Shown here in pieces: positions 4,256-51,013 of a stretch of 64,000 nt of DNA. The DNA is from Bacteroidota bacterium (GTDB lineage: Bacteria; Bacteroidota; Bacteroidia; SXHM01), in the NCBI GenBank assembly GCA_947479755.1, contig CANKAM010000015.1, forward strand, positions 4,441 to 68,440, read 5' to 3'. How positions within the stretch are numbered: the stretch's first letter is position 1; the number at the start of each line of letters is the position of its first letter. The notes under the pieces are model-generated. The model did not search any database. It was not told where the DNA came from and saw only the letters and a list, made by a program, of their open reading frames with translations. A program made the translations under genes and the position numbers.

Positions 4256-6058
4256 GTGAGCCAAGAAAAGGAACAGCATCTTAAAAATATCATCTCCACC
4301 CTGCCCGACAATCCTGGAGTGTACCGTTTTTCCAACGAAGAGGGAACTATTATTTATGTGGGCAAAGCCCGAAACCTGAAGAAAAGGGTAAGCAGTTACT
4401 TCAACCGCGAACAATACGAAAACCGTAAAACATGGGTGATGGTGAACAAGGTTGCAGATATTGCATACACCGTTGTTGAAACCGAACTTGATGCCCTTCT
4501 TCTTGAAAACAGCCTGATAAAAAAATACCAGCCACGCTATAATATCCGTCTCAAAGACGATAAAAGTTTTCCATGGATTTGTATCCGTGACGAACATTTT
4601 CCGCGTGTTTATGCCATGCGCAATCCGGTTAAAGATGGTTCAACTTATTATGGTCCTTATGCAAATGTGAAGATGATGCATGCCGTGCTGGAGCTGGCAC
4701 GCAGACTTTATCCAATCAGAACATGTAATTTGAATTTGACTGAAGAAAATATAAAGGCAAAAAAATTCAAAGTGTGTCTGGAATACCAGATCGGCAATTG
4801 CCTTGGTCCTTGTGAAGGTTTGCAAAGTGAGCAGGAATACAATGAAAATCTGCAACAGGTAAAACACATCATCAAAGGAAATATCCGTTCAGTTTTGGAG
4901 CATCTTGAAACGCAGATGAACGATTTTGCTGTGAAATTAGAATTTGAAAAGGCTCAGGTTGTGAAGCACAAACTTGATATGGTGGAAAAGTTCCGCGGTA
5001 AGTCAACTGTTGTGAATCCTGCGATTGGCAAGGTGGATGTGTTCAGCATTATGAGCGATGAGAAAAATGCGTACGTAAATTTTATGCGTGTAGTGGATGG
5101 AGCCATTGTGCAAACCCACACTATTGAGTTGAATAAACGATTGGATGAAAGCGATGAAGAATTATTATCGTTTGCAATCGGAGAAATTTTTGAACTCTTC
5201 GGAAGCGAGATGAAGGAAGCGATTGTGCCGTTCAGCCCCGGAATTGAATTTCCGGGTGTTGAATTTTTTGTTCCTCAACGCGGTGATAAAAAAAGTCTGT
5301 TGGATCTTTCGTTGCGTAATGCAAAATATTTCCGTCAGGATAAACTGCGAATACAGGAAAAAATAAATCCTGAGCGACATACACAGCGAATATTGGAGCA
5401 AATGAAAGTTGATTTGAGGATGAAGGAATTGCCTGCACACATTGAATGTTTTGACAATTCCAACATACAAGGTGCACACCCTGTTTCGGCAATGGTGGTT
5501 TTCAAAAATGCCAAGCCGTCCAAAAAAGATTATCGGCATTTTAACATACGCACAGTGGTAGGTCCTGATGATTTTGCATCCATGGAAGAAGTAATTACCA
5601 GACGTTACTCTCGCATGCTGGAAGAAAACCAACACATGCCCCAACTGATAATTATTGATGGCGGCAAAGGACAACTGAGCAGCGCATTGCAAAGTCTTGA
5701 AAAATTAGGACTGCGCGGAAAGATCACTGTCATCGGCATTGCAAAAAAACTGGAAGAGATTTATTTCCCTGGAGATTCGCTACCGCTTTATATAGACAAA
5801 AAATCAGAAACACTGAAAGTTATTCAACATGCGCGTAATGAAGCGCACCGCTTTGGAATTACTCACCACCGAAATCGCAGAAGCAAAGCAACCGTAAAAA
5901 CTGAACTGACTGAAATAAAAGGTATCAGCAACATTACCGCACAGAAATTATTGAAAACTTTTGGTTCAGTAAAAAAACTAAAAGAAGTAACGGAAGAAGA
6001 AATTTCAAAAGTGATTGGAAAGGCGAAAGGGAAATTGGTAGCCGAACATTTTAAATAG
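4256..6058 (+). CDS. uvrC: Excinuclease ABC subunit C
   Basis: A GIY-YIG N-terminus is present (GVYRFSNEEGTIIYVGKARNLKKRVSSYF). The length is 600 aa and the C-terminus is an RNase H-like/HhH region. It starts with GTG. Confidence 0.93.
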   Translation: MSQEKEQHLKNIISTLPDNPGVYRFSNEEGTIIYVGKARNLKKRVSSYFNREQYENRKTWVMVNKVADIAYTVVETELDALLLENSLIKKYQPRYNIRLKDDKSFPWICIRDEHFPRVYAMRNPVKDGSTYYGPYANVKMMHAVLELARRLYPIRTCNLNLTEENIKAKKFKVCLEYQIGNCLGPCEGLQSEQEYNENLQQVKHIIKGNIRSVLEHLETQMNDFAVKLEFEKAQVVKHKLDMVEKFRGKSTVVNPAIGKVDVFSIMSDEKNAYVNFMRVVDGAIVQTHTIELNKRLDESDEELLSFAIGEIFELFGSEMKEAIVPFSPGIEFPGVEFFVPQRGDKKSLLDLSLRNAKYFRQDKLRIQEKINPERHTQRILEQMKVDLRMKELPAHIECFDNSNIQGAHPVSAMVVFKNAKPSKKDYRHFNIRTVVGPDDFASMEEVITRRYSRMLEENQHMPQLIIIDGGKGQLSSALQSLEKLGLRGKITVIGIAKKLEEIYFPGDSLPLYIDKKSETLKVIQHARNEAHRFGITHHRNRRSKATVKTELTEIKGISNITAQKLLKTFGSVKKLKEVTEEEISKVIGKAKGKLVAEHFK

Positions 6059-40168: not shown

Positions 40169-42541
40169 ATGTATGTAATTAAAAGAGACGGCAGACGCGA
40201 GTCAATTAAGTTTGACAAAATAACCGCGCGCATTCAAAAGCTTTGCTACGGCTTAAATCCCATCGTTGACCCAGTGCCGGTGGCAATGAAAGTTATCAAA
40301 GGAATTTACGAAGGCGTTACAACCATCGAGTTGGATAACCTTGCTGCCGAAGTGGCGGCATCATTCACCATCAAACATCCTGACTATGCGCTATTAGCTT
40401 CACGCATTGCTGTTAGTAATCTGCATAAGATTACTAACAAATCGTTCTCAGGAACAATGAAAGCATTGTATGAGTATGTTGACCCTGTTACCGGTGAAAA
40501 CGCATCATTGCTTGCCAATGATGTTTATGAAATCATTGAGAAAAATGCAGAGCTTTTAGACTCAACAATTATTTACGATCGCGATTTCGGTTACGATTAT
40601 TTTGGATTTAAAACTTTAGAGCGTTCTTATCTTTTAAAATTAGATGGCAGAATTGCAGAGCGTCCGCAACACATGCTGATGCGCGTTTCTGTTGGTATTC
40701 ATAAAGATGATATTAACTCCGCAATTGAAACCTACAACCTGATGAGCGAGCGTTGGTTTACACACGCAACGCCAACACTTTTCAATGCAGGAACTCCAAA
40801 GCCACAAATGTCAAGTTGCTTTTTGTTAACCATGAAAAGCGACAGCATCGATGGTATTTACGATACATTAAAACAATGTGCTAAAATTTCTCAATCTGCT
40901 GGTGGAATTGGATTAAGCATCAATAACATTCGCGCAACAGGTTCATACATCAAAGGCACCAACGGAACATCCAACGGAATTGTGCCGATGCTTCGTGTAT
41001 TCAATGATACCGCACGTTATGTTGATCAGGGCGGAGGCAAACGCAAGGGCTCTTTTGCTATTTATCTGGAGCCATGGCATGCAGATGTTTTTGATTTCCT
41101 TGACCTGAAAAAGAATCATGGAAAAGAAGAAAATCGCGCACGTGATTTATTCTTCGCGTTGTGGGTTCCTGATTTGTTCATGAAACGTGTGGAAGAAAAT
41201 GGTGATTGGTCATTATTCTGCCCGCATGAAGCGCCTGGATTAGCAGATACTTACGGAGATGAATTTGAAACGTTGTATTTCAAATACGAAAAAGAAGGCA
41301 AAATGCGCAAGACTATTAAAGCGCAGGAATTGTGGTTCGCCATTTTAGAATCACAAACTGAAACAGGCACACCTTACATGCTTTACAAAGATGCCTGCAA
41401 CAAAAAATCAAATCAAAAAAACCTCGGAACAATCAAAAGCAGCAATCTCTGCACCGAGATTATTGAATACACATCACCTGAAGAAGTTGCAGTTTGTAAT
41501 CTTGCTTCTATTGCATTGCCTCACTTTGTGATTGACGGTCAACTTGATCACCAGAAACTATTTGAGGTAACGTATGTAATCACTAAAAATCTGAACAAAA
41601 TTATTGACAGGAATTTTTATCCTGTTGAAGAAGCACGCAGAAGCAACATGCGTCACCGTCCTATCGGAATTGGTGTTCAGGGATTGGCAGATGCTTTCAT
41701 TCTCTTGCGCATGCCTTTTGATTCAAACGAAGCGAAAAAATTGAATAAAGAAATTCACGAAACCATTTACTATGCTTCCATGACCGCGTCCAAAGACCTT
41801 GCAAAGGTTGATGGTGCTTATGAAAGCTATGAAGGCTCACCAGTTTCCCAAGGGGTTTTCCAATTCGACATGTGGGGTGTTACTCCTTCCAGCCGCTGGG
41901 AATGGGATATTCTGAAAGATGAAGTGAAAAAACACGGAGTAAGAAACTCATTGCTGCTTGCACCCATGCCAACAGCTTCTACGTCACAGATACTTGGCAA
42001 TAACGAGTGTTTTGAGCCCTACACTTCTAACATTTACACACGCAGAGTATTGTCAGGAGAATTTATTGTGGTGAACAAACACCTGCTGAAAGACCTTGTA
42101 AATCTAGGCTTGTGGAATGACGGATTGAAAAACGATCTTATCGCTGCCAATGGCTCTGTACAAAATCTTGATGTAATTCCTCAAAACATAAAAGACCTTT
42201 ACAAAACGGTTTGGGAAATAAAACAAAAAGACCTGATTGATATGGCTGCTGACCGCGGAGCATATATCTGCCAAAGCCAATCGTTAAATCTTTTCGTTCA
42301 AAATCCGAATTTTGGGAAGCTAACTTCGATGCACTTTTATGCTTGGAAAAAAGGCCTGAAAACAGGAATGTATTACCTGCGAACCAAAGCTGCAACAGAT
42401 GCAATTAAGTTCACTGTTGAGAAACAAGCAGCGGTTCAACCAGAAGTTGTACAGGTAGCACCTAAAACTGTTGAAGAACAACAGGCAGCAATTGCATGCT
42501 CATTAGATGATCCGGATAGTTGCGAGGCTTGCGGTAGTTAA
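40169..42541 (+). CDS. nrdA: Ribonucleoside-diphosphate reductase class Ia alpha (R1) subunit
   Basis: It has an ATP-cone ([20 protein letters not shown]), a catalytic Cys/Asn/Glu region (..SSNLCTEI..) and a C-terminal Cys pair (CEACGS). The length is 790 aa. Confidence 0.95.
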
Positions 42542-42562
42542 GAAATAATCGATAAAATAAAA

Positions 42563-42592
42563 AAGCCACGCTTTTAGTGTGGTTTTTTTATT
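42563..42592. terminator. Probable rho-independent terminator after nrdA
   Basis: The sequence aaagccacgcttttagtgtggttttttt is a short stem followed by a U-run. Confidence 0.4.
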
Positions 42593-43652
42593 TGCAGTAA
42601 ACTATGTTTTCTAAAATCAATGCCAGCCTGTGTGCTTCACATTTATATTTTAAATGGAATAAAGAATTTCCGGCAAGGTTGTAAGTAATTGGATTTTCAA
42701 ATGCGGTGAGTAATCCTGCATGAAAGAATGACCACCGATGATTAGTAAGCTGACCGGGATTTACAATTCCGATTGTATTACTTTTTGCACCCAACCTAAT
42801 TAGTGAAGTCGAAAGAATAACTCTATTCATCTCATCACTTTCCTTTTCAATCAAAGAATTTAAATCAGCTATAATTTTGGATTTTATTTCTGACAATCCA
42901 TGTACCTCGTATTTTTCCAGCAAACGTGCAACATGATACAAAATCACAGCCGCAGAAGGATATGAATGAGAAGCATAAAATGGCTTCTCTAAATATTTTT
43001 TCTTCTCAATCGCTGAACAAATAAAGGAAATGGAATCGAGGTCATGTTGATTTAATTCCAGTTTATTCTGAAAAACAAAATACAGGATATTGCACAGCAC
43101 ACAAACATCAAACTCAATGAACATATTCTTCCCGAAGAAAGTGGAATATGCTTTCAGGTTTTTGTATTCGGGAAAAGTATTGGTGATTTGCTTTTTGCTG
43201 AGATTGGCATGTTGTGCTAATTTATTTTTCAGCCACAAAGCTGTTTCGCAGCTTGGATTTAAAGTCAGGTAAATCAGTGAAGTATCATCTGCATCATCTG
43301 GTATTCGAACTTTTTTAACACGAGATAAAATTTTTCCGTTAGGGAAATGCGGAGAACCATCTGTTCTCCAGAAGTTATAAGTATCAAGTCCGTCTTTATT
43401 TTTATAATCAGGATAATTAGTAATTGCTTTTGTGCAAATTTCGTCCGCAAGTTTTTTTTCTTCCTGCGATAATTTCTCTCGCAGATTTTGAAGAATAAAA
43501 ATAATGCTTGCCGTAAAAAAAATGTTGTTGTCTTCGCGCTCAAAAGGAAAATACAGATGAAAACACTGTGAAGGAAAAATTCCGGGAGCATAATATTTGT
43601 CTCCTTTTGACTGAAGTTCTGAAATTTTTAAAAGCAGTTCTGTCGAGGACAT
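42588..43652 (-). CDS. Uncharacterised 354-aa all-helical protein, translationally coupled to the sirtuin gene
   Basis: The start ATG overlaps the cobB stop (TGATG on the coding strand). It contains ..RIPDDADDTSLIYL.. (DxDDT(S)), a motif reminiscent of class II terpene-cyclase/alpha-alpha-toroid proteins. No confident family assignment could be made. Confidence 0.5.
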   Translation of the reverse strand: MSSTELLLKISELQSKGDKYYAPGIFPSQCFHLYFPFEREDNNIFFTASIIFILQNLREKLSQEEKKLADEICTKAITNYPDYKNKDGLDTYNFWRTDGSPHFPNGKILSRVKKVRIPDDADDTSLIYLTLNPSCETALWLKNKLAQHANLSKKQITNTFPEYKNLKAYSTFFGKNMFIEFDVCVLCNILYFVFQNKLELNQHDLDSISFICSAIEKKKYLEKPFYASHSYPSAAVILYHVARLLEKYEVHGLSEIKSKIIADLNSLIEKESDEMNRVILSTSLIRLGAKSNTIGIVNPGQLTNHRWSFFHAGLLTAFENPITYNLAGNSLFHLKYKCEAHRLALILENIVYCK

Positions 43653-44347
43653 CAGGCAGCAAATTCTTTAATCAGTTTTTCAGCTAAATCAGGTAAGCCT
43701 TTCCCGGCATTTTCTTTAATCACACGTATATCAGCAAAGTTGTAAACCAGATCAGGATGCGGATCTACATAAAATTTAGGAATATCAGCAGAAGCATAAT
43801 CAAGCAGATTGGCTGCAGGATAAGCGTTGAGTGAAGTTCCTGCCACAATAAAAATATCTGCCTGCTGAACCAATTCTATTGCATTATCCATTTCAGGAAC
43901 AGCTTCACCAAACCACACAATGTGCGGACGAAGCTGATAGCCTTTCTCGCAACGTTCACCCGTTTTCAGCTCCCAACCATTGATATCATAAATCAAATTT
44001 GGATAAGCAGAGCTGCGCGCTTTTTTTATTTCACCGTGCAGGTGCACTACTTTTTTTGAACCTGCACGCTCATGTAAATCATCAATGTTTTGGGTGATAA
44101 CTTGAACTTTAAAATGCTTTTGCAACTCTGCAATTGCAAGATGTCCTGCATTTGGCTTGGCTTCTAATGCCTGCTTTCTGAGTTGGTTATAAAATTCCTG
44201 AACCAGCGCAGGATTTTTAGACCAGGCCTGTGGTGTAGCAACATCTTCAATTTTGTGTTCTTCCCACAAACCTCCGCTGTCGCGGAATGTTTTAATACCA
44301 CTTTCAGCGCTTATTCCTGCTCCTGTAAAAACAACCAATCGCTTCAT
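43652..44347 (-). CDS. cobB: NAD-dependent protein deacylase, Sir2 family (short zinc-less bacteroidete CobB type)
   Basis: It has GAGISAESGIKTFRDSGGLWE, QNIDDLHERAG, a catalytic H in ..HLHGEI.., and ..LRPHIVWFGEAVPE... The length is 231 aa. Confidence 0.85.
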   Translation of the reverse strand: MKRLVVFTGAGISAESGIKTFRDSGGLWEEHKIEDVATPQAWSKNPALVQEFYNQLRKQALEAKPNAGHLAIAELQKHFKVQVITQNIDDLHERAGSKKVVHLHGEIKKARSSAYPNLIYDINGWELKTGERCEKGYQLRPHIVWFGEAVPEMDNAIELVQQADIFIVAGTSLNAYPAANLLDYASADIPKFYVDPHPDLVYNFADIRVIKENAGKGLPDLAEKLIKEFAA

Positions 44348-44356
44348 TTTTAAAAT

Positions 44357-47035
44357 TTATTCAAATTCAATCTTCATCTCCGTTTCTTCTTTTTTATTCT
44401 GGTCTGCTTTCACTTTTTTTAAAATCTTTTTCTTCTCCTTCTCGGATTTTCCGACAGTATCAGGCATTTCATCCCATTCAATTTTCAGTTCTGCATTTTT
44501 CTCTTGTTCTTTTTTTTTGAAAGAAGCAGTGTCCTTTTTAAACCAACCAAACTCTTCATTCAACAAAGCTTTCATGTTCTGGTTTTCTTTTTTCATATCG
44601 CTCTTAATTTTATCCCTCACAGATTTATTGTCATACGAAAACTTATAATCGCCCCCACTTCCTTTCATAGTCAAATAAAGCGAGGTTTTTCCTCGACCAT
44701 CATCCTCAAGATAACCAAACTCTTCGTTTTCTTTTTTTGCTTTACGAGCTTTTCCGAACAAAATATCAGAAAGAAAAACCCGGAAATGATACTCCACATC
44801 GTTGTTAAAACCATGTGTTCCCGAAACATCAAGGTCAAGTGCAGAGGATTGAATTTTCATCAACGGGATAATTACCTGCTTATCTTTTATCTCAATATTG
44901 TTGCTCATGCTGGCAAATTTCACATGGTTCAGATCTTCGACTTTAATAAACCTTGAAAGCTCCTGCAGCGGTTTGAAATCAACCAACTCGCCTTTACTGA
45001 TTGCAAGATTGCTTTTCACAACCAGTTTGGATAAATCCATTTTCAATGACGATGACAATACTCCGGAAAGATTAATGTTTGCAGTTGCTCTTCCTCTCAG
45101 ATTTTCATCTGTTATAAATTTTTGTCCGAAATTTTCGCACTCATAAAATAGTTGTTGTACATCAATATCAGAAATTACTGTATTGCATAAAATATCAAAA
45201 TTATTTTCCGGATTTTTCATTAGTGAAAGGTCTGCTTTTGCCAACCCGCTCATTCCGGTGAATGCAAGATTGGTTGCAGTAAAATAAGCGTCTTTTAACT
45301 TAACAACACCTTGAATTTTCTTTGCTGAAAACTTTCTAAATCTTAATTCTTCAGCAGAAAACATCAGATCAAAAGCTAGGTTGGGCGAAAGATTGAGATG
45401 ATATTCTTCATTAGTGACAGTTGTTGTTTCTGTTACATTTCCTTCTTCCAGCAATTGGTCAAGGTTAATGAGTTTTGATTTTGCAGTTGCATTAATATAA
45501 AGTTGTTGGTCAGGCAAAAGAAAGTATTGTAGAATATTTCGGAAATACCCGGTGAGTGCAAAATCGGTTCCTGAAATAACTCCTGAGAAGTTTTCAATTT
45601 TAAGTTCGTTGTTATGGAATGCAAAATCACCGTTGAGTTCTTTAAAGCTACGTTTATTCCCTTTCAATTTGAATAGGGCATTTCTAAGAGCAACGTTTCC
45701 TGAAGTAGTAGCCTGAGTGATTTCGGCAGCGGTAATATTTTCAATATCAGCGAATAAAGCACGGAAAGACGCATTGAGTGATGCATTACCTGAAATTTCT
45801 TCCAGTGTATCAATGTGTAAAAAATGAGCTAATTTCTCAAGGTCAAATTCTGCATCCAACGTAGTCTGCACATCAGGATGCAAAAAATTACGAATGCTGA
45901 AAGCTCCGCTCAGCCTCCCGTCTGCAAGCGATGCATGAAAAGAAGAAACACTCAATATTGCTGTTTCGGGTTTACGGATATCCTTCATCGCATAATTTCC
46001 TTTTACACTTACTTCTTCCAACGAAACACCCGAAGGTTTATGACTGATGTCCCCTTTTTCAATTCCGAAATCTGCATTCAATGACGGAGAATTTCCTTCA
46101 CCGCTTTTGCCTTTATAATTTGCTTTAAAATAAAGACTGCCATCGCTGCTGTAGTCAGCCAGTTTTTTTGCAGCACTCTCTGGAAGCAATGAAATTATTT
46201 CGCTGACATCAAAGTTTTTACCTTCTACCATCAGATCGGTTTCACCACCTGCACAGGCTGAACGAATGCTACCAAACAAAGAAACCTCCATGGCAGCAAT
46301 CGTTATTTCCCCTTTTTCAAATGTGTAAATGCCTTCCTTAGAATTGACATTGAGTTCCAATTCAACAAGGAATTTTTTGTCGTGTAATATTTCTTTTTTG
46401 CTTTGCTCAAATGCAAGCAGTTGTCCTTCGCTTTCAATAGCAAGAGTAAATTGTTTTTCTGAAAAATCTCCATTCAGTTTTATGATTTTCTGATAAGAAG
46501 AAATATCTTGTCCCAACGCATCATCACGGTAATACAATCTTGTATCGCGAAACTTTACTTCATTCAACGCCAATGAAAAAGAAGAAGGAACAGTATCTTT
46601 TCGTGTTTTAAAAATTTCATAGTTGCCTTTACCTTCTTTGTCACGTGCTATTTTCACAACACCATGTTCTGCATTTATTTTTTTGATGTTGTAATTTTTG
46701 TTGATGATATCAAGCAGGTTAAAACCAAGATACACTTCACGGAAATAAAATAAGGTATCTTTTTTAGCACTTACTTCCCGCACAAACACTTCGTTAAGCT
46801 CTAATGAAACATACGGAAACTGTTGAAAGAGCGTAAGATTAACTTTGTCGCTGATGCTGACGGGTGTGAGCAATTCCTTGTTTACTTCGGCTAGCACATA
46901 GTCTTTTATTTTATCGCGGTAAAGGGTAGCCAAAACCACGCTTGTCAATGGAATCAGGACAACAAGCGAAAGCAAAACAATGAGTATTGTTTTGAAAATA
47001 GTAAATCGTTTCGACTGTTCCTGTACTTCTTCCAT
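44357..47035 (-). CDS. AsmA-family outer-membrane biogenesis protein (TamB/AsmA-like)
   Basis: It has a single N-terminal TM anchor, a long beta-rich periplasmic body of 892 aa, and a K/E-rich C-terminal tail. The architecture is typical of AsmA-like proteins. Confidence 0.65.
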   Translation of the reverse strand: MEEVQEQSKRFTIFKTILIVLLSLVVLIPLTSVVLATLYRDKIKDYVLAEVNKELLTPVSISDKVNLTLFQQFPYVSLELNEVFVREVSAKKDTLFYFREVYLGFNLLDIINKNYNIKKINAEHGVVKIARDKEGKGNYEIFKTRKDTVPSSFSLALNEVKFRDTRLYYRDDALGQDISSYQKIIKLNGDFSEKQFTLAIESEGQLLAFEQSKKEILHDKKFLVELELNVNSKEGIYTFEKGEITIAAMEVSLFGSIRSACAGGETDLMVEGKNFDVSEIISLLPESAAKKLADYSSDGSLYFKANYKGKSGEGNSPSLNADFGIEKGDISHKPSGVSLEEVSVKGNYAMKDIRKPETAILSVSSFHASLADGRLSGAFSIRNFLHPDVQTTLDAEFDLEKLAHFLHIDTLEEISGNASLNASFRALFADIENITAAEITQATTSGNVALRNALFKLKGNKRSFKELNGDFAFHNNELKIENFSGVISGTDFALTGYFRNILQYFLLPDQQLYINATAKSKLINLDQLLEEGNVTETTTVTNEEYHLNLSPNLAFDLMFSAEELRFRKFSAKKIQGVVKLKDAYFTATNLAFTGMSGLAKADLSLMKNPENNFDILCNTVISDIDVQQLFYECENFGQKFITDENLRGRATANINLSGVLSSSLKMDLSKLVVKSNLAISKGELVDFKPLQELSRFIKVEDLNHVKFASMSNNIEIKDKQVIIPLMKIQSSALDLDVSGTHGFNNDVEYHFRVFLSDILFGKARKAKKENEEFGYLEDDGRGKTSLYLTMKGSGGDYKFSYDNKSVRDKIKSDMKKENQNMKALLNEEFGWFKKDTASFKKKEQEKNAELKIEWDEMPDTVGKSEKEKKKILKKVKADQNKKEETEMKIEFE

Positions 47036-47116
47036 AGTTAAAAAGCGCTGTAAAGCTATTAACGTAAATGCAGAATAAAAATTGTTTTAGTTTTGAAGGC
47101 ATTAAATCTTAATTCT

Positions 47117-47668
47117 ATGGCCGAAACAGGAATTCTTAAAAAAGGGAAAACAGCCTTTATCATTATTGATGTTCAGGAACGGTTGATGCCCGTTATCTTT
47201 AATAACACTGAAGTTTTTGAAAATGTGAACCGATTGATAGAAGGCTCAAAAATACTGAGTGTTCCGCTTCTTATTACCGAACAATACCCTAAAGGATTAG
47301 GAAAAACCTGTGCAGAAGTAACCATTCCCGAAGGACAGGACGTGATTGAAAAGGTTTGCTTCTCGTGTTTGCTTTCAGATCCTGTGAATGAAAAACTGAA
47401 AGCACTGGGAATTGAACAGATTGTGCTTGCAGGCGTTGAAAGCCATATCTGTGTTTTAAAAACTGCTTTGGATGCATTGAACAGTGGTTTTCAGGTTCAT
47501 GTAGTAGCCGATGCAGTTTCATCACGTAAAGAATATAGCAAGCAAATTGCATTAGAAAGAATGCGACAAGCCGGTGCTTTTATTGCCACTACCGAAATGG
47601 TTCTTTTTCAATTGATGGATGCAGCAGGAACCGAAGAATTCAAACAAATCAGCAAATTAATACGATAA
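47117..47668 (+). CDS. Isochorismatase-family cysteine hydrolase (YcaC-like)
   Basis: It has ..TAFIIIDVQERLMP.. (Asp of the catalytic triad), ..VLAGVESHICVLKTALDA.. (catalytic Cys), and a fold length of about 183 aa. The ORF opens at 47093. Confidence 0.75.
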   Translation: MAETGILKKGKTAFIIIDVQERLMPVIFNNTEVFENVNRLIEGSKILSVPLLITEQYPKGLGKTCAEVTIPEGQDVIEKVCFSCLLSDPVNEKLKALGIEQIVLAGVESHICVLKTALDALNSGFQVHVVADAVSSRKEYSKQIALERMRQAGAFIATTEMVLFQLMDAAGTEEFKQISKLIR

Positions 47669-47672
47669 GAAA

Positions 47673-49451
47673 ATGAAAGACTATACACGCCTGTTCGACC
47701 TGCTTCCCTATCAGCAGTCAAATCATCCGCAAGAGATTTGTCTTGCGGAAAAAGTAACAGAAAACGGACAAAAGTTCTACAAAGGTTACAGTACACAGGA
47801 GTGTATCAACATCATTAATCAACTGAGTAAAGCCTTGCTGAAACTGGGTGTTAAGCCAAACGACAAAATCGGTTTGATTGCTAACAATCGTCCGCAATGG
47901 AATTTTGTTGATTTAGCTGCACAGCAAATAGGAGCTATAAATGTACCCATCTATCCTACTATTACTGAAAGTGAATACAAATTTATTTTCAACGATGCAG
48001 AGATTATTTACTGCTTTGTTTCGGATGCTGATTTGTATACAAAAATTCAAAGCATAAAATCTGATGTTCCTACATTGAAAGATGTTTTCACATTTAATGA
48101 AGTCGCAGGAGCAAGGAACTGGAAAACATTATTGGAAGAAGTAAGTGCTGATGACCTGAAGCAAATTGAAATACTTAAAGCAACAATAAAACCAAACGAT
48201 CTTGCTACCATTATTTATACTTCCGGAACTACAGGAAATCCAAAAGGTGTGATGCTTTCACACAACAACATCATCAGCAACATCAAATCAACACTTTCCA
48301 TTCAGCAAATGATGGTTGCAGGCAAACGAAGTATTAGTTTTTTACCACTTTGCCATAGTTTTGAACGCATGGTGGTTTATACGTACATGGCTGTTGGTAT
48401 GTCGGTTTATTATGCCGAAACATTAGAAACCATTGGCGAAAATCTAAAAGAAGTAAAACCTCATTTCTTTACCACCGTTCCGCGTCTGCTTGAAAAAGTG
48501 TATGAAAAAATATTGGAGAAGGGCAATGCTTTAGAAGGCTTCCGCAAGAAATTATTTTTCTGGAGCTTTGACTTAGGTTTAAAGTTTGAACTGAATAAAT
48601 TTCAGGGAATATCTTACACGCTTCAACTTGCCATTGCACGCAAATTAGTTTTCTCTAAATGGAAAGAAGCCCTGGGCGGAGAAGTGGAAGCTCTTGTAAG
48701 CGGTGCTGCTGCATTGAATGCAAAACTGGGAACGCTGTTTACCGGAGCAGGAATTCCTATTATTGAAGGTTACGGATTAACAGAGACTTCGCCTGTACTT
48801 ACCTCAAACCGCTTGGAAGAAAAGGACCGCAAACTCGGAACGATTGGTATTCCTATTCCGGGTGTTGAAATAAAAATTGCTGAAGACGGTGAGATACTTG
48901 CCAAAGGACCAAACATCATGTTGGGTTATTACAAACGCCCTGATTTAACAGCGGAGGTGATTGATAAAGAGGGCTGGTTTCACACCGGTGATATAGGAGT
49001 GTATGACGGAAATTTTCTGAAAATAACTGATCGCAAAAAAGAGCTTTTCAAAACTTCAGGAGGAAAATATGTTGCGCCACAACCTATTGAAAACAAAATG
49101 AAAGAATCTCCATTGATTGAGCAAGTGATGGTAGTTGGCAGCGAACGCAAATTTGTTTCGGGATTGATTGTACCTTCATTTGTGAACTTAGAAGCATGGT
49201 GCAAAAACAACAATGTTATTTTTCCGGGAACTGTGGGAGTAATACGAATTCCTGAAGTGATAGAGGCTATTCAGAAAGAGGTAGAACGCATTAATCAGGA
49301 TATTAATCATGTGGAGCAGATAAAGAAGTTTACACTCTTGCCAACAGAATGGGGCGTTGCAACAGGAGAACTTACTCCTACCATGAAACTGAAACGAAAA
49401 ATAATTCTGGAAAAATTCAGCGTAGAAATTGAGCAGATGTACAAAGAATAA
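47673..49451 (+). CDS. Long-chain-fatty-acid--CoA ligase (AMP-dependent synthetase/ligase)
   Basis: It has the AMP-binding motif IIYTSGTTGNPKGVMLSHNN, ..GYGLTETSP.. and ..TGDIG..DG.L.ITDRKKELFK. The length is 592 aa. Confidence 0.85.
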   Translation: MKDYTRLFDLLPYQQSNHPQEICLAEKVTENGQKFYKGYSTQECINIINQLSKALLKLGVKPNDKIGLIANNRPQWNFVDLAAQQIGAINVPIYPTITESEYKFIFNDAEIIYCFVSDADLYTKIQSIKSDVPTLKDVFTFNEVAGARNWKTLLEEVSADDLKQIEILKATIKPNDLATIIYTSGTTGNPKGVMLSHNNIISNIKSTLSIQQMMVAGKRSISFLPLCHSFERMVVYTYMAVGMSVYYAETLETIGENLKEVKPHFFTTVPRLLEKVYEKILEKGNALEGFRKKLFFWSFDLGLKFELNKFQGISYTLQLAIARKLVFSKWKEALGGEVEALVSGAAALNAKLGTLFTGAGIPIIEGYGLTETSPVLTSNRLEEKDRKLGTIGIPIPGVEIKIAEDGEILAKGPNIMLGYYKRPDLTAEVIDKEGWFHTGDIGVYDGNFLKITDRKKELFKTSGGKYVAPQPIENKMKESPLIEQVMVVGSERKFVSGLIVPSFVNLEAWCKNNNVIFPGTVGVIRIPEVIEAIQKEVERINQDINHVEQIKKFTLLPTEWGVATGELTPTMKLKRKIILEKFSVEIEQMYKE

Positions 49452-49492: not shown

Positions 49493-50056
49493 GTGCTTAT
49501 TACCCATCCTAAACTAACCAAGCTTCTTCAACAGGCATATTCTGCTGAAAAAGCTGCTGCTTTTGCTTATCAGGGACATGCCGGTTCATTAAAAAATCAG
49601 GATGAAAAAATTCCTGTTCGCCAGATAGAACTTGACGAATGGAAACACCGCGAAGAAGTACTGAAGATAATGAAACAGTATCAAATTCCTGTTTCAAAAA
49701 AGTTTGAAGTTCAGTTTCATGTTATCGGCAAAATTATTTCAGGGAGTTGTTATGTTATCGGCTGGTTTATGCCTTATTACTTTGCGGGCAGATTAGAAAG
49801 CGGAAACGTATGCGAGTATTTTGTGATGATCCATTATTTTCATGAGTTGGGTATTAAGGAGCACGACCAGATACTATATGAAATGGCTATCAAAGAAAAA
49901 GAACACGAAGTTTTTTTTCTTGAAAAAGTAAAGGGAAGTAAGTTGTTGCCTTTCTTTGAAAAGCTGTTCAACTGGGGAAAGAAAAGCAGCTTTAATGATG
50001 TTGATCTGGAAAATAAATTTCCGGCAGAACAATCCGAAAGTTATTGCAAGAAATAA
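49493..50056 (+). CDS. Ferritin-like diiron protein (MiaE/Coq7-like hydroxylase family suspected)
   Basis: It has two E-x-x-H pairs (ELDEWKH.., ..KEKEHE..) in a four-helix pattern. It starts with GTG. The family assignment is tentative. Confidence 0.35.
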   Translation: MLITHPKLTKLLQQAYSAEKAAAFAYQGHAGSLKNQDEKIPVRQIELDEWKHREEVLKIMKQYQIPVSKKFEVQFHVIGKIISGSCYVIGWFMPYYFAGRLESGNVCEYFVMIHYFHELGIKEHDQILYEMAIKEKEHEVFFLEKVKGSKLLPFFEKLFNWGKKSSFNDVDLENKFPAEQSESYCKK

Positions 50057-50134: not shown

Positions 50135-51013
50135 TCAGTTTCTCTTATCTGCTCCCCACATCATTTTGTTGCGCAGGGTAGTTATAAAATTATCACCGGG
50201 AAAACGTACCAGACCTAAGGTAAATACACCTCTTGATATCTGAAGTTCAAATGAACTGGGTAAGGTAACCGAGCGTGAGTCCAATGTTGCAAGAAAATTT
50301 TCACTGCGGCTTTCTACTTTTAATTTTACTTTGCTTTTGTTAGAGATAACAAAAGGACGCACCGTTAAACCATGCGGTGCAATGGGAGTAATTACAAAGT
50401 TACCGCAACCGGGACTAAGAATAGGTCCTCCGCAACTGAGTGAATAACCGGTAGAACCTGTTGATGTGGCTATAATTAATCCATCGGCCCAATAGGAGTT
50501 TACAAATTCATCGTCCACCCAGGTATGAATGGTGATCATGCTGGAAGTGTCTTTTTTGGTAACGGTTATTTCATTCAATGCAAAATTATTTTCACCGAAA
50601 TAATCTGTTCCGTTTATAAAACTTACCAACGTACGCTGCTCAATCGAATAGTTTTTCTCAAAAATGTTTTGCAGTGCATGGTTAATATTTTCCTGCGAAA
50701 CACCGGAGAGAAATCCCAGTCTTCCGGTATTAATTCCCAAGACAGGAATTCCTGAACTGCCCACCAATAAAGCACTTTGCAGCAAGGTTCCATCCCCTCC
50801 TATTGAAAACAGAAAATCTACTTTGCCCTCAATATCTTCTTTTGATTCAAAAACTTTTGCGGCTGCAAGTGCAGGAATTTCATTTGGCAATTGTTGATGA
50901 AACTCGCGGTGAATAAAAACCTGAACATTATTTTCTGCCAGTTTTTTCAGTAATTCTGAAAAGCCGGAAAAGAAATCGGAGTTATATTTTTTGCCGTAGA
51001 GCGCAATGTTCAT
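50135..51013 (-). CDS. nadK: NAD(+) kinase
   Basis: It has the GGDGT motif (FSIGGDGTLLQ), NE/D..T. and ..ATSTGSTGYSLSCGGPIL... The length is 292 aa. Confidence 0.9.
   Translation of the reverse strand: MNIALYGKKYNSDFFSGFSELLKKLAENNVQVFIHREFHQQLPNEIPALAAAKVFESKEDIEGKVDFLFSIGGDGTLLQSALLVGSSGIPVLGINTGRLGFLSGVSQENINHALQNIFEKNYSIEQRTLVSFINGTDYFGENNFALNEITVTKKDTSSMITIHTWVDDEFVNSYWADGLIIATSTGSTGYSLSCGGPILSPGCGNFVITPIAPHGLTVRPFVISNKSKVKLKVESRSENFLATLDSRSVTLPSSFELQISRGVFTLGLVRFPGDNFITTLRNKMMWGADKRN

Follow-up and report, generated by a model that had tools for sequence, protein, structure and literature searches.

A gene overlapping cobB in a Bacteroidota bacterium encodes a homologue of the drimenol synthase cyclase domain

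When the stop codon of one bacterial gene shares a base with the start codon of the next, do the two genes form a functional system, or are they packed together without a common purpose? We addressed this question at a locus of a Bacteroidota bacterium (GTDB lineage Bacteroidia; SXHM01; assembly GCA_947479755.1), analysing a 64,000-nucleotide stretch of contig CANKAM010000015.1, hereafter called the window. On its minus strand, a gene encoding a CobB-type, class III-like nicotinamide adenine dinucleotide (NAD)-dependent protein deacylase of 231 amino acids (aa) (43652..44347) runs into an open reading frame (ORF) encoding a 354-aa protein (42588..43652), with the stop codon TGA and the start codon ATG overlapping by one base (TGATG; the junction reads gctgccTGATGtcc on the minus strand). 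A preliminary description of this DNA had reported the two ORFs, the overlap and, apart from its class, the sirtuin assignment exactly as we find them, and had interpreted the overlap as the mark of a functional Sir2-partner module, possibly a NAD-depleting anti-phage pair. Here we report that the 354-aa protein belongs to a family of Bacteroidota proteins that lacks annotation and is related to the drimenol synthase cyclase domain, and that the sirtuin adjoins it in a single shallow clade of the loci compared. We consider a protonation-dependent class II cyclase with an incidental cobB overlap to be the best explanation of the locus, and hold it with moderate confidence.

Fold and family of the 354-aa protein

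Neither the single sequence of the 354-aa protein nor a 34-sequence profile matched any entry in Pfam, NCBIfam, PADLOC or the sequences of the Protein Data Bank (PDB), apart from one stray NCBIfam match (E 0.047), which agrees with the earlier remark that the protein falls into no recognised family. The Pfam copy searched did not include PF28380 (AstC-like_C), so that its negative result says nothing on PF28380, and we built hidden Markov models (HMMs) of our own. In precomputed annotation, PF28380 was found in none of the 120 listed homologues of the 354-aa protein, and a faint PF28380 match was present in one family member.

The family is sizeable. A search of a large protein collection returned 649 homologues, called 'hypothetical protein' wherever they are named, except for one UniRef label of 'DUF2264 domain-containing protein', and the named hosts were all Bacteroidota, namely Dyadobacter, Runella, Persicitalea, Salmonirosea and metagenome-assembled genomes labelled 'Bacteroidia bacterium'. 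Searching 1.84 billion cluster representatives exhaustively with an HMM yielded 474 family clusters (about 470 at 50% identity); ten were looked up and each was a 'hypothetical protein'. Among the best 150 of the 474 clusters, each representative contained a single matched stretch, and nearly all were 340–416 aa long, with a 482-aa outlier and a few fragments. In a scan of one genome per species, covering ~185,000 species genomes, relatives were encoded at 239 loci. The 34-sequence alignment revealed the invariant blocks TYNFW, HFPNG, RIPDDxDDT, AYSTxFGKNMxIEFDxCVLxN, PF..H.YP...I.YH..RL and CEAH.

A structure model and a search by structure, both proposed in the preliminary description, placed the protein beside the beta domain of drimenol synthase. 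The AlphaFold2 model built from the 34-sequence alignment was nearly all-helical, with a predicted local distance difference test (pLDDT) score of 87 and a predicted template modelling (pTM) score of 0.90. When it was compared with the PDB by Foldseek, the nine top matches were all chains of drimenol synthase (9m7f/9mhs/9mlo; E 4e-9 to 4e-8, TM 0.63–0.67), followed by 8paj, a 342-aa squalene-hopene cyclase (E 2e-3), while generic alpha/alpha toroids, including complement thioester domains, GH88, sugar epimerases and GH8-type barrels, gave E values of 0.007 or higher.

Profile comparisons led to the same group of enzymes. The motif of the Aquimarina spongiae drimenol synthase (AsDMS) was taken from published mutagenesis primers and confirmed in the PDB chain, where it reads KNEARPDNFPDDLDTTSMVLS; the window protein has KKVRIPDDADDTSLIYL at the corresponding place. 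From a metagenome, a degenerate DNA pattern for FPDDxDTT, whose other matches were mostly chance, brought up the sequence L118, which served as the seed of a cyclase-domain alignment; the stricter FPDDLDTTSMV pattern had no match in the metagenomes, and peptides derived from the AsDMS primers retrieved no candidate AsDMS sequence from the protein collection. L118 matched the structures of AstC and AsDMS, and its homologues carry Pfam PF28380 AstC-like_C. On its metagenome contig (Ga0214501_1017261), it is a 601-aa open frame that encodes a fungal AstC-like HAD-terpene cyclase containing FPDDLDTTS.

An hhalign comparison of 263 family members with 53 AstC-like cyclase domains gave a probability of 98.7% and an E value of 1.6e-16 over 170 columns, spanning residues 89–290 of the window protein. 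The HMMs were reciprocal, the cyclase-domain HMM matching each of the 263 family members and the family HMM each of the 53 cyclase domains. When applied to 1787 six-frame ORFs from 80 family loci, the cyclase-domain HMM ranked the 80 family ORFs first at 11–37 bits, the next ORF scoring 4.8, and the family HMM matched AsDMS residues 302–431 at 24 bits. Homology to the cyclase domain of AstC and AsDMS, with the catalytic pair retained, is thus well supported.

Predicted catalytic residues and proposed chemistry

The 354-aa protein contains a RIPDDADDTS region (VRIPDDADDTSLIYL) in which, by alignment with AsDMS, P118-D-D120-A-D122-D-T124 (43281..43301, minus strand) forms a class II general-acid motif of the DxDD/DxDTT type. 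Both hhalign and hmmsearch aligned P118 to T124 (PDDADDT) with F318-P-D-D321-L-D323-T-T of AsDMS. In addition to this block (IPDDADDTS in the window protein, FPDDLDTTS in AsDMS), FDVCVLCNILY aligned with IDAIVAINVLY, and SYPSAAVILYH with YYPAPDVFLFF. Using the numbering of the PNAS paper on AsDMS, in which Y417 is the Y427 of other numbering, AsDMS D321 corresponds to D120, the general acid D323 to D122, D372 to D182, N378 to N188, and the acid-activating tyrosine Y417 to Y231 (42960..42962, minus strand), which hhalign and hmmsearch against AsDMS place in a conserved Y-P block. Across 263 members, D120, D122, N188 and Y231 were each 99% conserved, the highest values in the family, followed by Y239, H240, D182, E348 and R243. 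With D120 and D122 conserved to this extent, chance does not account for the D-rich motif, and the resemblance to class II terpene cyclases that the preliminary description had seen in its DxDDT motif is borne out by the fold, by profile–profile and HMM comparison, and by this residue-level alignment.

In AsDMS, which combines a HAD phosphatase with a class II terpene-cyclase beta domain and whose cyclase domain is a 12-helix bundle (PMC9128629, PMC12232559, PMC12365925), the middle Asp of the DxDT(T) motif is the general acid, and its D-to-N mutant abolishes cyclisation (PMC9128629, PMC12365925). Mutants of AsDMS at D331 (A/N), D333 and Y427 (Y427F) are inactive (PMC12365925). By sequence correspondence, D122 is predicted to be the proton donor, and Y231 corresponds to the tyrosine that hydrogen-bonds and activates the catalytic Asp.

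We therefore propose, from homology, a mechanism in which the gene product would act in the cytoplasm as a stand-alone beta-domain (alpha/alpha-barrel) enzyme. An isoprenoid tail would enter the barrel, where Y231 would polarise D122, with D120 beside it, and D122 would donate a proton to the terminal C=C bond or to an epoxide, thereby starting a carbocation cyclisation of class II. The pocket may be lined, and the carbocations stabilised, by the invariant aromatic residues F94, W95, F103, Y169, F173, F181 and Y239. Candidate substrates would be a prenyl diphosphate bridged by Mg or a non-phosphorylated isoprenoid or meroterpenoid.

Several observations weigh against this proposal, some of them at the site where the substrate head group would be held. 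The phosphate-holding residues of AsDMS are R368, R370, R415 and Y416 (PMC12232559), and K314 of AstC is critical for the alpha-phosphate (PMC13244436). By alignment, the counterpart of the phosphate-binding loop of AsDMS and AstC is the block Y169-STFFGKNMFIEFD182 (43107..43148, minus strand), and the diphosphate-binding residues of both enzymes are not conserved at the aligned positions. AsDMS R368 is replaced by M177 (93%), R370 by E180 (78% E and 15% D), R415 by H229 (47% H, 35% P), and Y416 by S/Q230, while AstC K314 aligns with M177 and the AstC Arg is also replaced in the Y169–D182 block. The basic residues near the site are conserved to a lesser degree (K175, 63%; R116, 53%). Given these replacements, binding of the substrate as a bare diphosphate, as in AsDMS, is improbable. 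The alignment appears to rule out AsDMS-style binding as such, and a prenyl diphosphate may still be the substrate, as an acidic residue at the head-group site could bind the diphosphate via Mg2+, by analogy with the beta-gamma cyclases. Many of the invariant residues are polar (H102, N105, H240, R243 and E348), and no isoprenoid gene was a conserved neighbour at the family loci examined.

The N-termini of some family members count on the same side. In 48 of the 150 best cluster representatives we found an extra N-terminal hydrophobic segment of 17–42 residues (in one further outlier the extension is 114 residues long), and many of these extensions end in A-Q type cleavage contexts with the PDDxD motif kept (P0143–P0270, e.g. 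P0185, P0187, P0203, P0251 and P0265). The extensions look like signal peptides, which suggests export of these members and would be out of the ordinary for enzymes supplied with prenyl diphosphates from the cytoplasm. No signal-peptide-like N-terminus is present in the window protein or in the Dyadobacter-type proteins. In one exported lineage, moreover, the family gene closes an arabinose-catabolism operon.

These same features bear on an alternative, which we regard as unlikely, in which the cyclase-like barrel and the acid/Tyr pair are kept for a non-isoprenoid substrate, making the protein a glycoside- or ether-cleaving or isomerising enzyme of carbohydrate or polar metabolism. The replaced phosphate-binding Arg/Lys, the polar invariant residues and the signal-peptide-like N-termini would fit such an enzyme, as would the arabinose context, where the family gene lies 18 nt after araB-araD-araA-SSF transporter genes on the same strand, other contexts with exported amidohydrolases, an S15 peptidase and a sulfatase, and the low-scoring structural matches to GH88, epimerases and GH8-type barrels (E 0.02–0.1). 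However, the glycoside hydrolase and epimerase matches are ~6–7 orders of magnitude weaker than those to drimenol synthase, with TM values of 0.37–0.49 against 0.66, and the sequence profiles tie the family specifically to AstC-like cyclase domains, the whole catalytic motif included. The arabinose context is confined to a single lineage, and the absence of recurring SusC/SusD or glycoside hydrolase neighbours at the family loci also counts against a role in carbohydrate metabolism.

Some details of the exported lineages deserve record. The arabinose operon (L214, 418..8185; L215, 261..7266) comprises a NUDIX/NrtR-type regulator, ribulokinase, ribulose-5-phosphate epimerase, arabinose isomerase and an SSF transporter, with the family gene last. 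A drimenol cluster of marine Flavobacteriia has been reported to be arabinose-induced (bioRxiv 10.1101/2025.09.20.677545), and the arabinose link common to the two may be a coincidence. At L209–L213 (e.g. L212, 7..1909; L213, 1145..2985), a YggS-like gene for a pyridoxal phosphate-binding protein (Ala_racemase_N, ~215 aa) begins 8–40 nt after the family gene, and a YggS-like neighbour lies on the same strand in three different exported lineages. At L212, an IspH/LytB gene is 3 kb from the family gene.

Returning to class II cyclisation as the preferred chemistry, we can also imagine, more tentatively, that the family is a Bacteroidota-specific mono-beta class II branch with a rebuilt head-group pocket, about one third of it exported, which cyclises a non-simple isoprenoid such as a prenyl-quinone, a polyprenol- or carotenoid-type lipid or an exogenous terpenoid. 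If this possibility were true, terpenoid cyclisation would take place in the cell envelope and would give a new product class in Cytophagales and freshwater Bacteroidia.

The sirtuin gene and its adjacency to the cyclase homologue

To determine whether the sirtuin pairing is conserved, we compared the neighbourhoods of the best 80 of the 239 loci, with 6-kb flanks on each side, by tblastn with the window neighbours. cobB adjoined the partner gene in only seven of them (L001–L006 and L008), where the partners were 79–91% identical to the window protein. In these seven, the whole block from acyl-CoA ligase through asmA, cobB, partner and nrdA to nrdB was syntenic over ~10 kb, nrdA being 93–100% identical, with one locus lacking an isochorismatase match. 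At the remaining 73 loci, where the partner is at most 55% identical, no Sir2 was found within 6 kb, even at E 1e-3, and a metagenomic homologue at 68% identity likewise had no Sir2, its flanks being a sulfatase gene and a small ORF. Given that the adjacency is confined to a narrow lineage, the overlap with cobB is probably compact operon packing acquired in one shallow freshwater Bacteroidia lineage rather than a two-gene system. The preliminary description had itself called for this comparison of neighbourhoods and had named a pair without synteny in related genomes as the result that would overturn it, and 7 of 80 loci is that result for the functional module that it had drawn from the overlap; the pairing is already gone at 68% identity.

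One observation weighs against regarding the overlap as incidental, in that the stop and start codons overlap in all seven clade loci, as TGATG or TTGA. The overlap also favours a view in which CobB works together with the 354-aa protein as a functional module, the latter being an acylation-regulated enzyme, a sirtuin substrate or an adaptor. This view could further draw on the co-transcription of cobB and its partner, with a plausible terminator after the second gene only, and on another lineage in which a homologue is flanked by a GNAT acetyltransferase. We nevertheless consider it very unlikely, because the adjacency is limited to one shallow clade in which the entire 10-kb neighbourhood is conserved and is absent from the 68%-identical homologue and the 73 other loci, and because the GNAT neighbour occurs in two near-identical loci only. 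CobB-type sirtuins are broad-specificity housekeeping enzymes, and the acyl-CoA ligase and NAD kinase nearby are more conventional sirtuin-related genes. Coupling and co-expression of cobB and its partner within the shallow clade are real, and carry little evolutionary weight. An 'acetylation theme', with GNAT beside a homologue and Sir2 here, was likewise rejected, since it depends on the same two near-identical loci. The locus thus offers a caution, as a one-base stop/start overlap that looked like a system dissolved once synteny was checked beyond the immediate clade.

The sirtuin itself resembles a housekeeping deacylase, as the preliminary description had recognised. It covers the whole Pfam SIR2 profile (E 8.9e-47) and aligns end to end with E. 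coli CobB (1s5p/6rxj; E 1.8e-51, residues 3–227), without an extra domain, sharing with E. coli CobB (PDB 1S5P) the catalytic His and the NAD-binding (Rossmann) blocks. It had been called a class-U sirtuin, a label that does not hold, as its closest relatives are E. coli CobB, Sir2Af1 and SIRT5, all class III. The NCBIfam deacylase models scored ~200–210 bits, under their equivalog cut-offs. Two differences from E. coli CobB stand out. The Cys ligands of the zinc module are mostly lost (KARSS...GERCEKG versus KVRCS...KCHCC), this stretch having a single Cys in the window Sir2 and six of its orthologues and two Cys in the seventh orthologue, and the Arg of the Y-x-x-R acyl-specificity pair is replaced by Leu (FYNQLRK versus FYNARRR). 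The Sir2 orthologues at L001–L006 and L008 lie at about 5300..6001.

SIR2 domains with partners of no recognised function recur in defence systems, which had prompted the suggestion of an NAD-depleting, SIR2-based anti-phage system, to which we give almost no credence. PADLOC did yield weak matches on the Sir2, the best being PDC-S65 (E 9.5e-4, 16.5 bits, 45 residues), but these were limited to the NAD-binding stretch and fell short of significance, and there were none for the partner. The defence-type SIR2 and cognate partner that characterise Thoeris, DSR, SIR2-HerA, SPARSA and other systems were not found in the window pair. Instead, the Sir2 is CobB-like from end to end, the partner is an enzyme homologue whose gene stands alone in hundreds of genomes, the pairing is not kept across the 80 loci, and the flanks consist of housekeeping genes (nrdAB, asmA, acyl-CoA ligase and NAD kinase) with no defence island.

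Upstream of cobB by 9 nt, on the same strand, lies an AsmA/YhdP-like gene (44357..47035, minus strand; Pfam AsmA, 30.6 bits against a cut-off of 29.8), in agreement with the AsmA-family gene described earlier. The order asmA–cobB–cyclase is repeated in the seven closely related loci and in contigs with an identical 354-aa protein, and the asmA-like gene is probably the first gene of an asmA–cobB–cyclase transcription unit in this lineage. A sigma-70 promoter scan gave chance-level matches, a sigma-70 model being unsuited to Bacteroidota promoters. At the other end, the 354-aa gene converges with nrdA (40169..42541, plus strand) across a 46-nt spacer, which holds a hairpin between A- and T-runs (42556..42592, minus strand). 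The convergent terminator previously placed after nrdA is supported in part, as the hairpin, a plausible bidirectional intrinsic terminator by RNA folding, has a dG of -10.4 kcal/mol and a z-score of -3.98, with 1 of 200 shuffles folding equally well, but a simple terminator scan with consensus thresholds did not flag it.

Beyond the asmA-like gene, the window contains an isochorismatase-family cysteine hydrolase, weakly YcaC/nicotinamidase-like (47093..47668, plus strand), a long-chain acyl-CoA ligase (47673..49451, plus strand) and a NAD kinase (50135..51013, minus strand). AMP-forming enzymes are classical CobB substrates, and these three are the more conventional sirtuin-linked genes, all less than 7 kb from cobB; their arrangement is kept in the same shallow clade only. 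Downstream of the acyl-CoA ligase, a 187-aa ORF (49493..50056, plus strand) with no NCBIfam match and no precomputed Pfam match keeps its position in related contigs.

Across the family loci, we looked for a conserved neighbour that would name a pathway and found none, the neighbours being heterogeneous. In Dyadobacter, a NifU-like gene ~80 nt upstream and a ferredoxin-NAD(P) reductase gene with a 2Fe-2S domain ~6 nt downstream flank the family gene on the same strand, an order kept across 30 species (L018, 5220..8148, and 29 other loci). In Runella and its relatives, the family gene adjoins a divergent outer-membrane beta-barrel gene, and at other Cytophagales loci MazG and thiamine pyrophosphokinase genes lie beside it. 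Further contexts combine exported amidohydrolases with an S15 peptidase, or an acyltransferase-3 gene with a GNAT gene.

Comparison with characterised class II cyclases

The fold, the motif and the chemistry proposed here are already known, and what is new is a family that is unannotated, ~16% identical to AsDMS, stand-alone and, to judge from its N-termini, partly exported, with an altered head-group site. It was invisible to Pfam, NCBIfam and PDB-sequence HMM searches, and yet the catalytic acid motif is retained exactly, as is the activating Tyr. If its members are active, terpenoid cyclisation would extend to common soil and freshwater Bacteroidota such as Dyadobacter, Runella and Larkinella, and the family would provide a natural example of cyclases with a changed head-group site that are possibly exported.

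AsDMS (PDB 9MHS, 9MLO, 9M7D-F) is the closest structural relative, having the same alpha-helical barrel (Foldseek E 4e-9, TM 0.66). The two proteins, both from Bacteroidota, share collinear blocks, the [FI]PDDxD[TD]TS motif and a Tyr-Pro block containing the acid-activating Tyr. Unlike AsDMS, the window protein lacks the N-terminal HAD phosphatase domain, as the cyclase-like domain covers all of its 354 residues and the searches gave no HAD match, and no HAD gene lies next to the family gene; nor did we find a drimenol-type cluster, with a farnesyl diphosphate synthase and an AraC-like regulator, around the window gene. Structures of the HAD-fused drimane synthases have been solved only in 2025–26. 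The fungal AstC-type HAD-like cyclases (PF28380; PDB 22TY/22TZ) have in common with the family the blocks TWNFF/TYNFW, PDDLDTT, TYF..R.D..V.NVL and YYP, but the AstC type is fungal and HAD-fused, whereas the 354-aa family is bacterial and stand-alone.

In its stand-alone architecture, the window protein is reminiscent of merosterolic acid synthase (MstE; PDB 6SBB) and the Sorangium cellulosum terpene synthase beta (WP_129572421), each a single beta domain of ~350 aa without a gamma domain, which are the only two lone beta-domain class II cyclases to have been characterised, the Sorangium enzyme in a 2025 preprint. Likened by description only, their D-rich motif lies ~120–135 residues from the N-terminus, as in the window protein; in the Sorangium enzyme, a mono-beta drimenyl-diphosphate synthase, it occupies residues 134–138 (2025 preprint). 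MstE was not among the best 50 Foldseek matches of the window model. The Sorangium enzyme retains R188, Y234 and Y235, the equivalents of the phosphate and acid residues of AsDMS, whereas the 354-aa family keeps the last Tyr only. MstE and the Sorangium enzyme set a precedent for cyclisation by a beta domain on its own.

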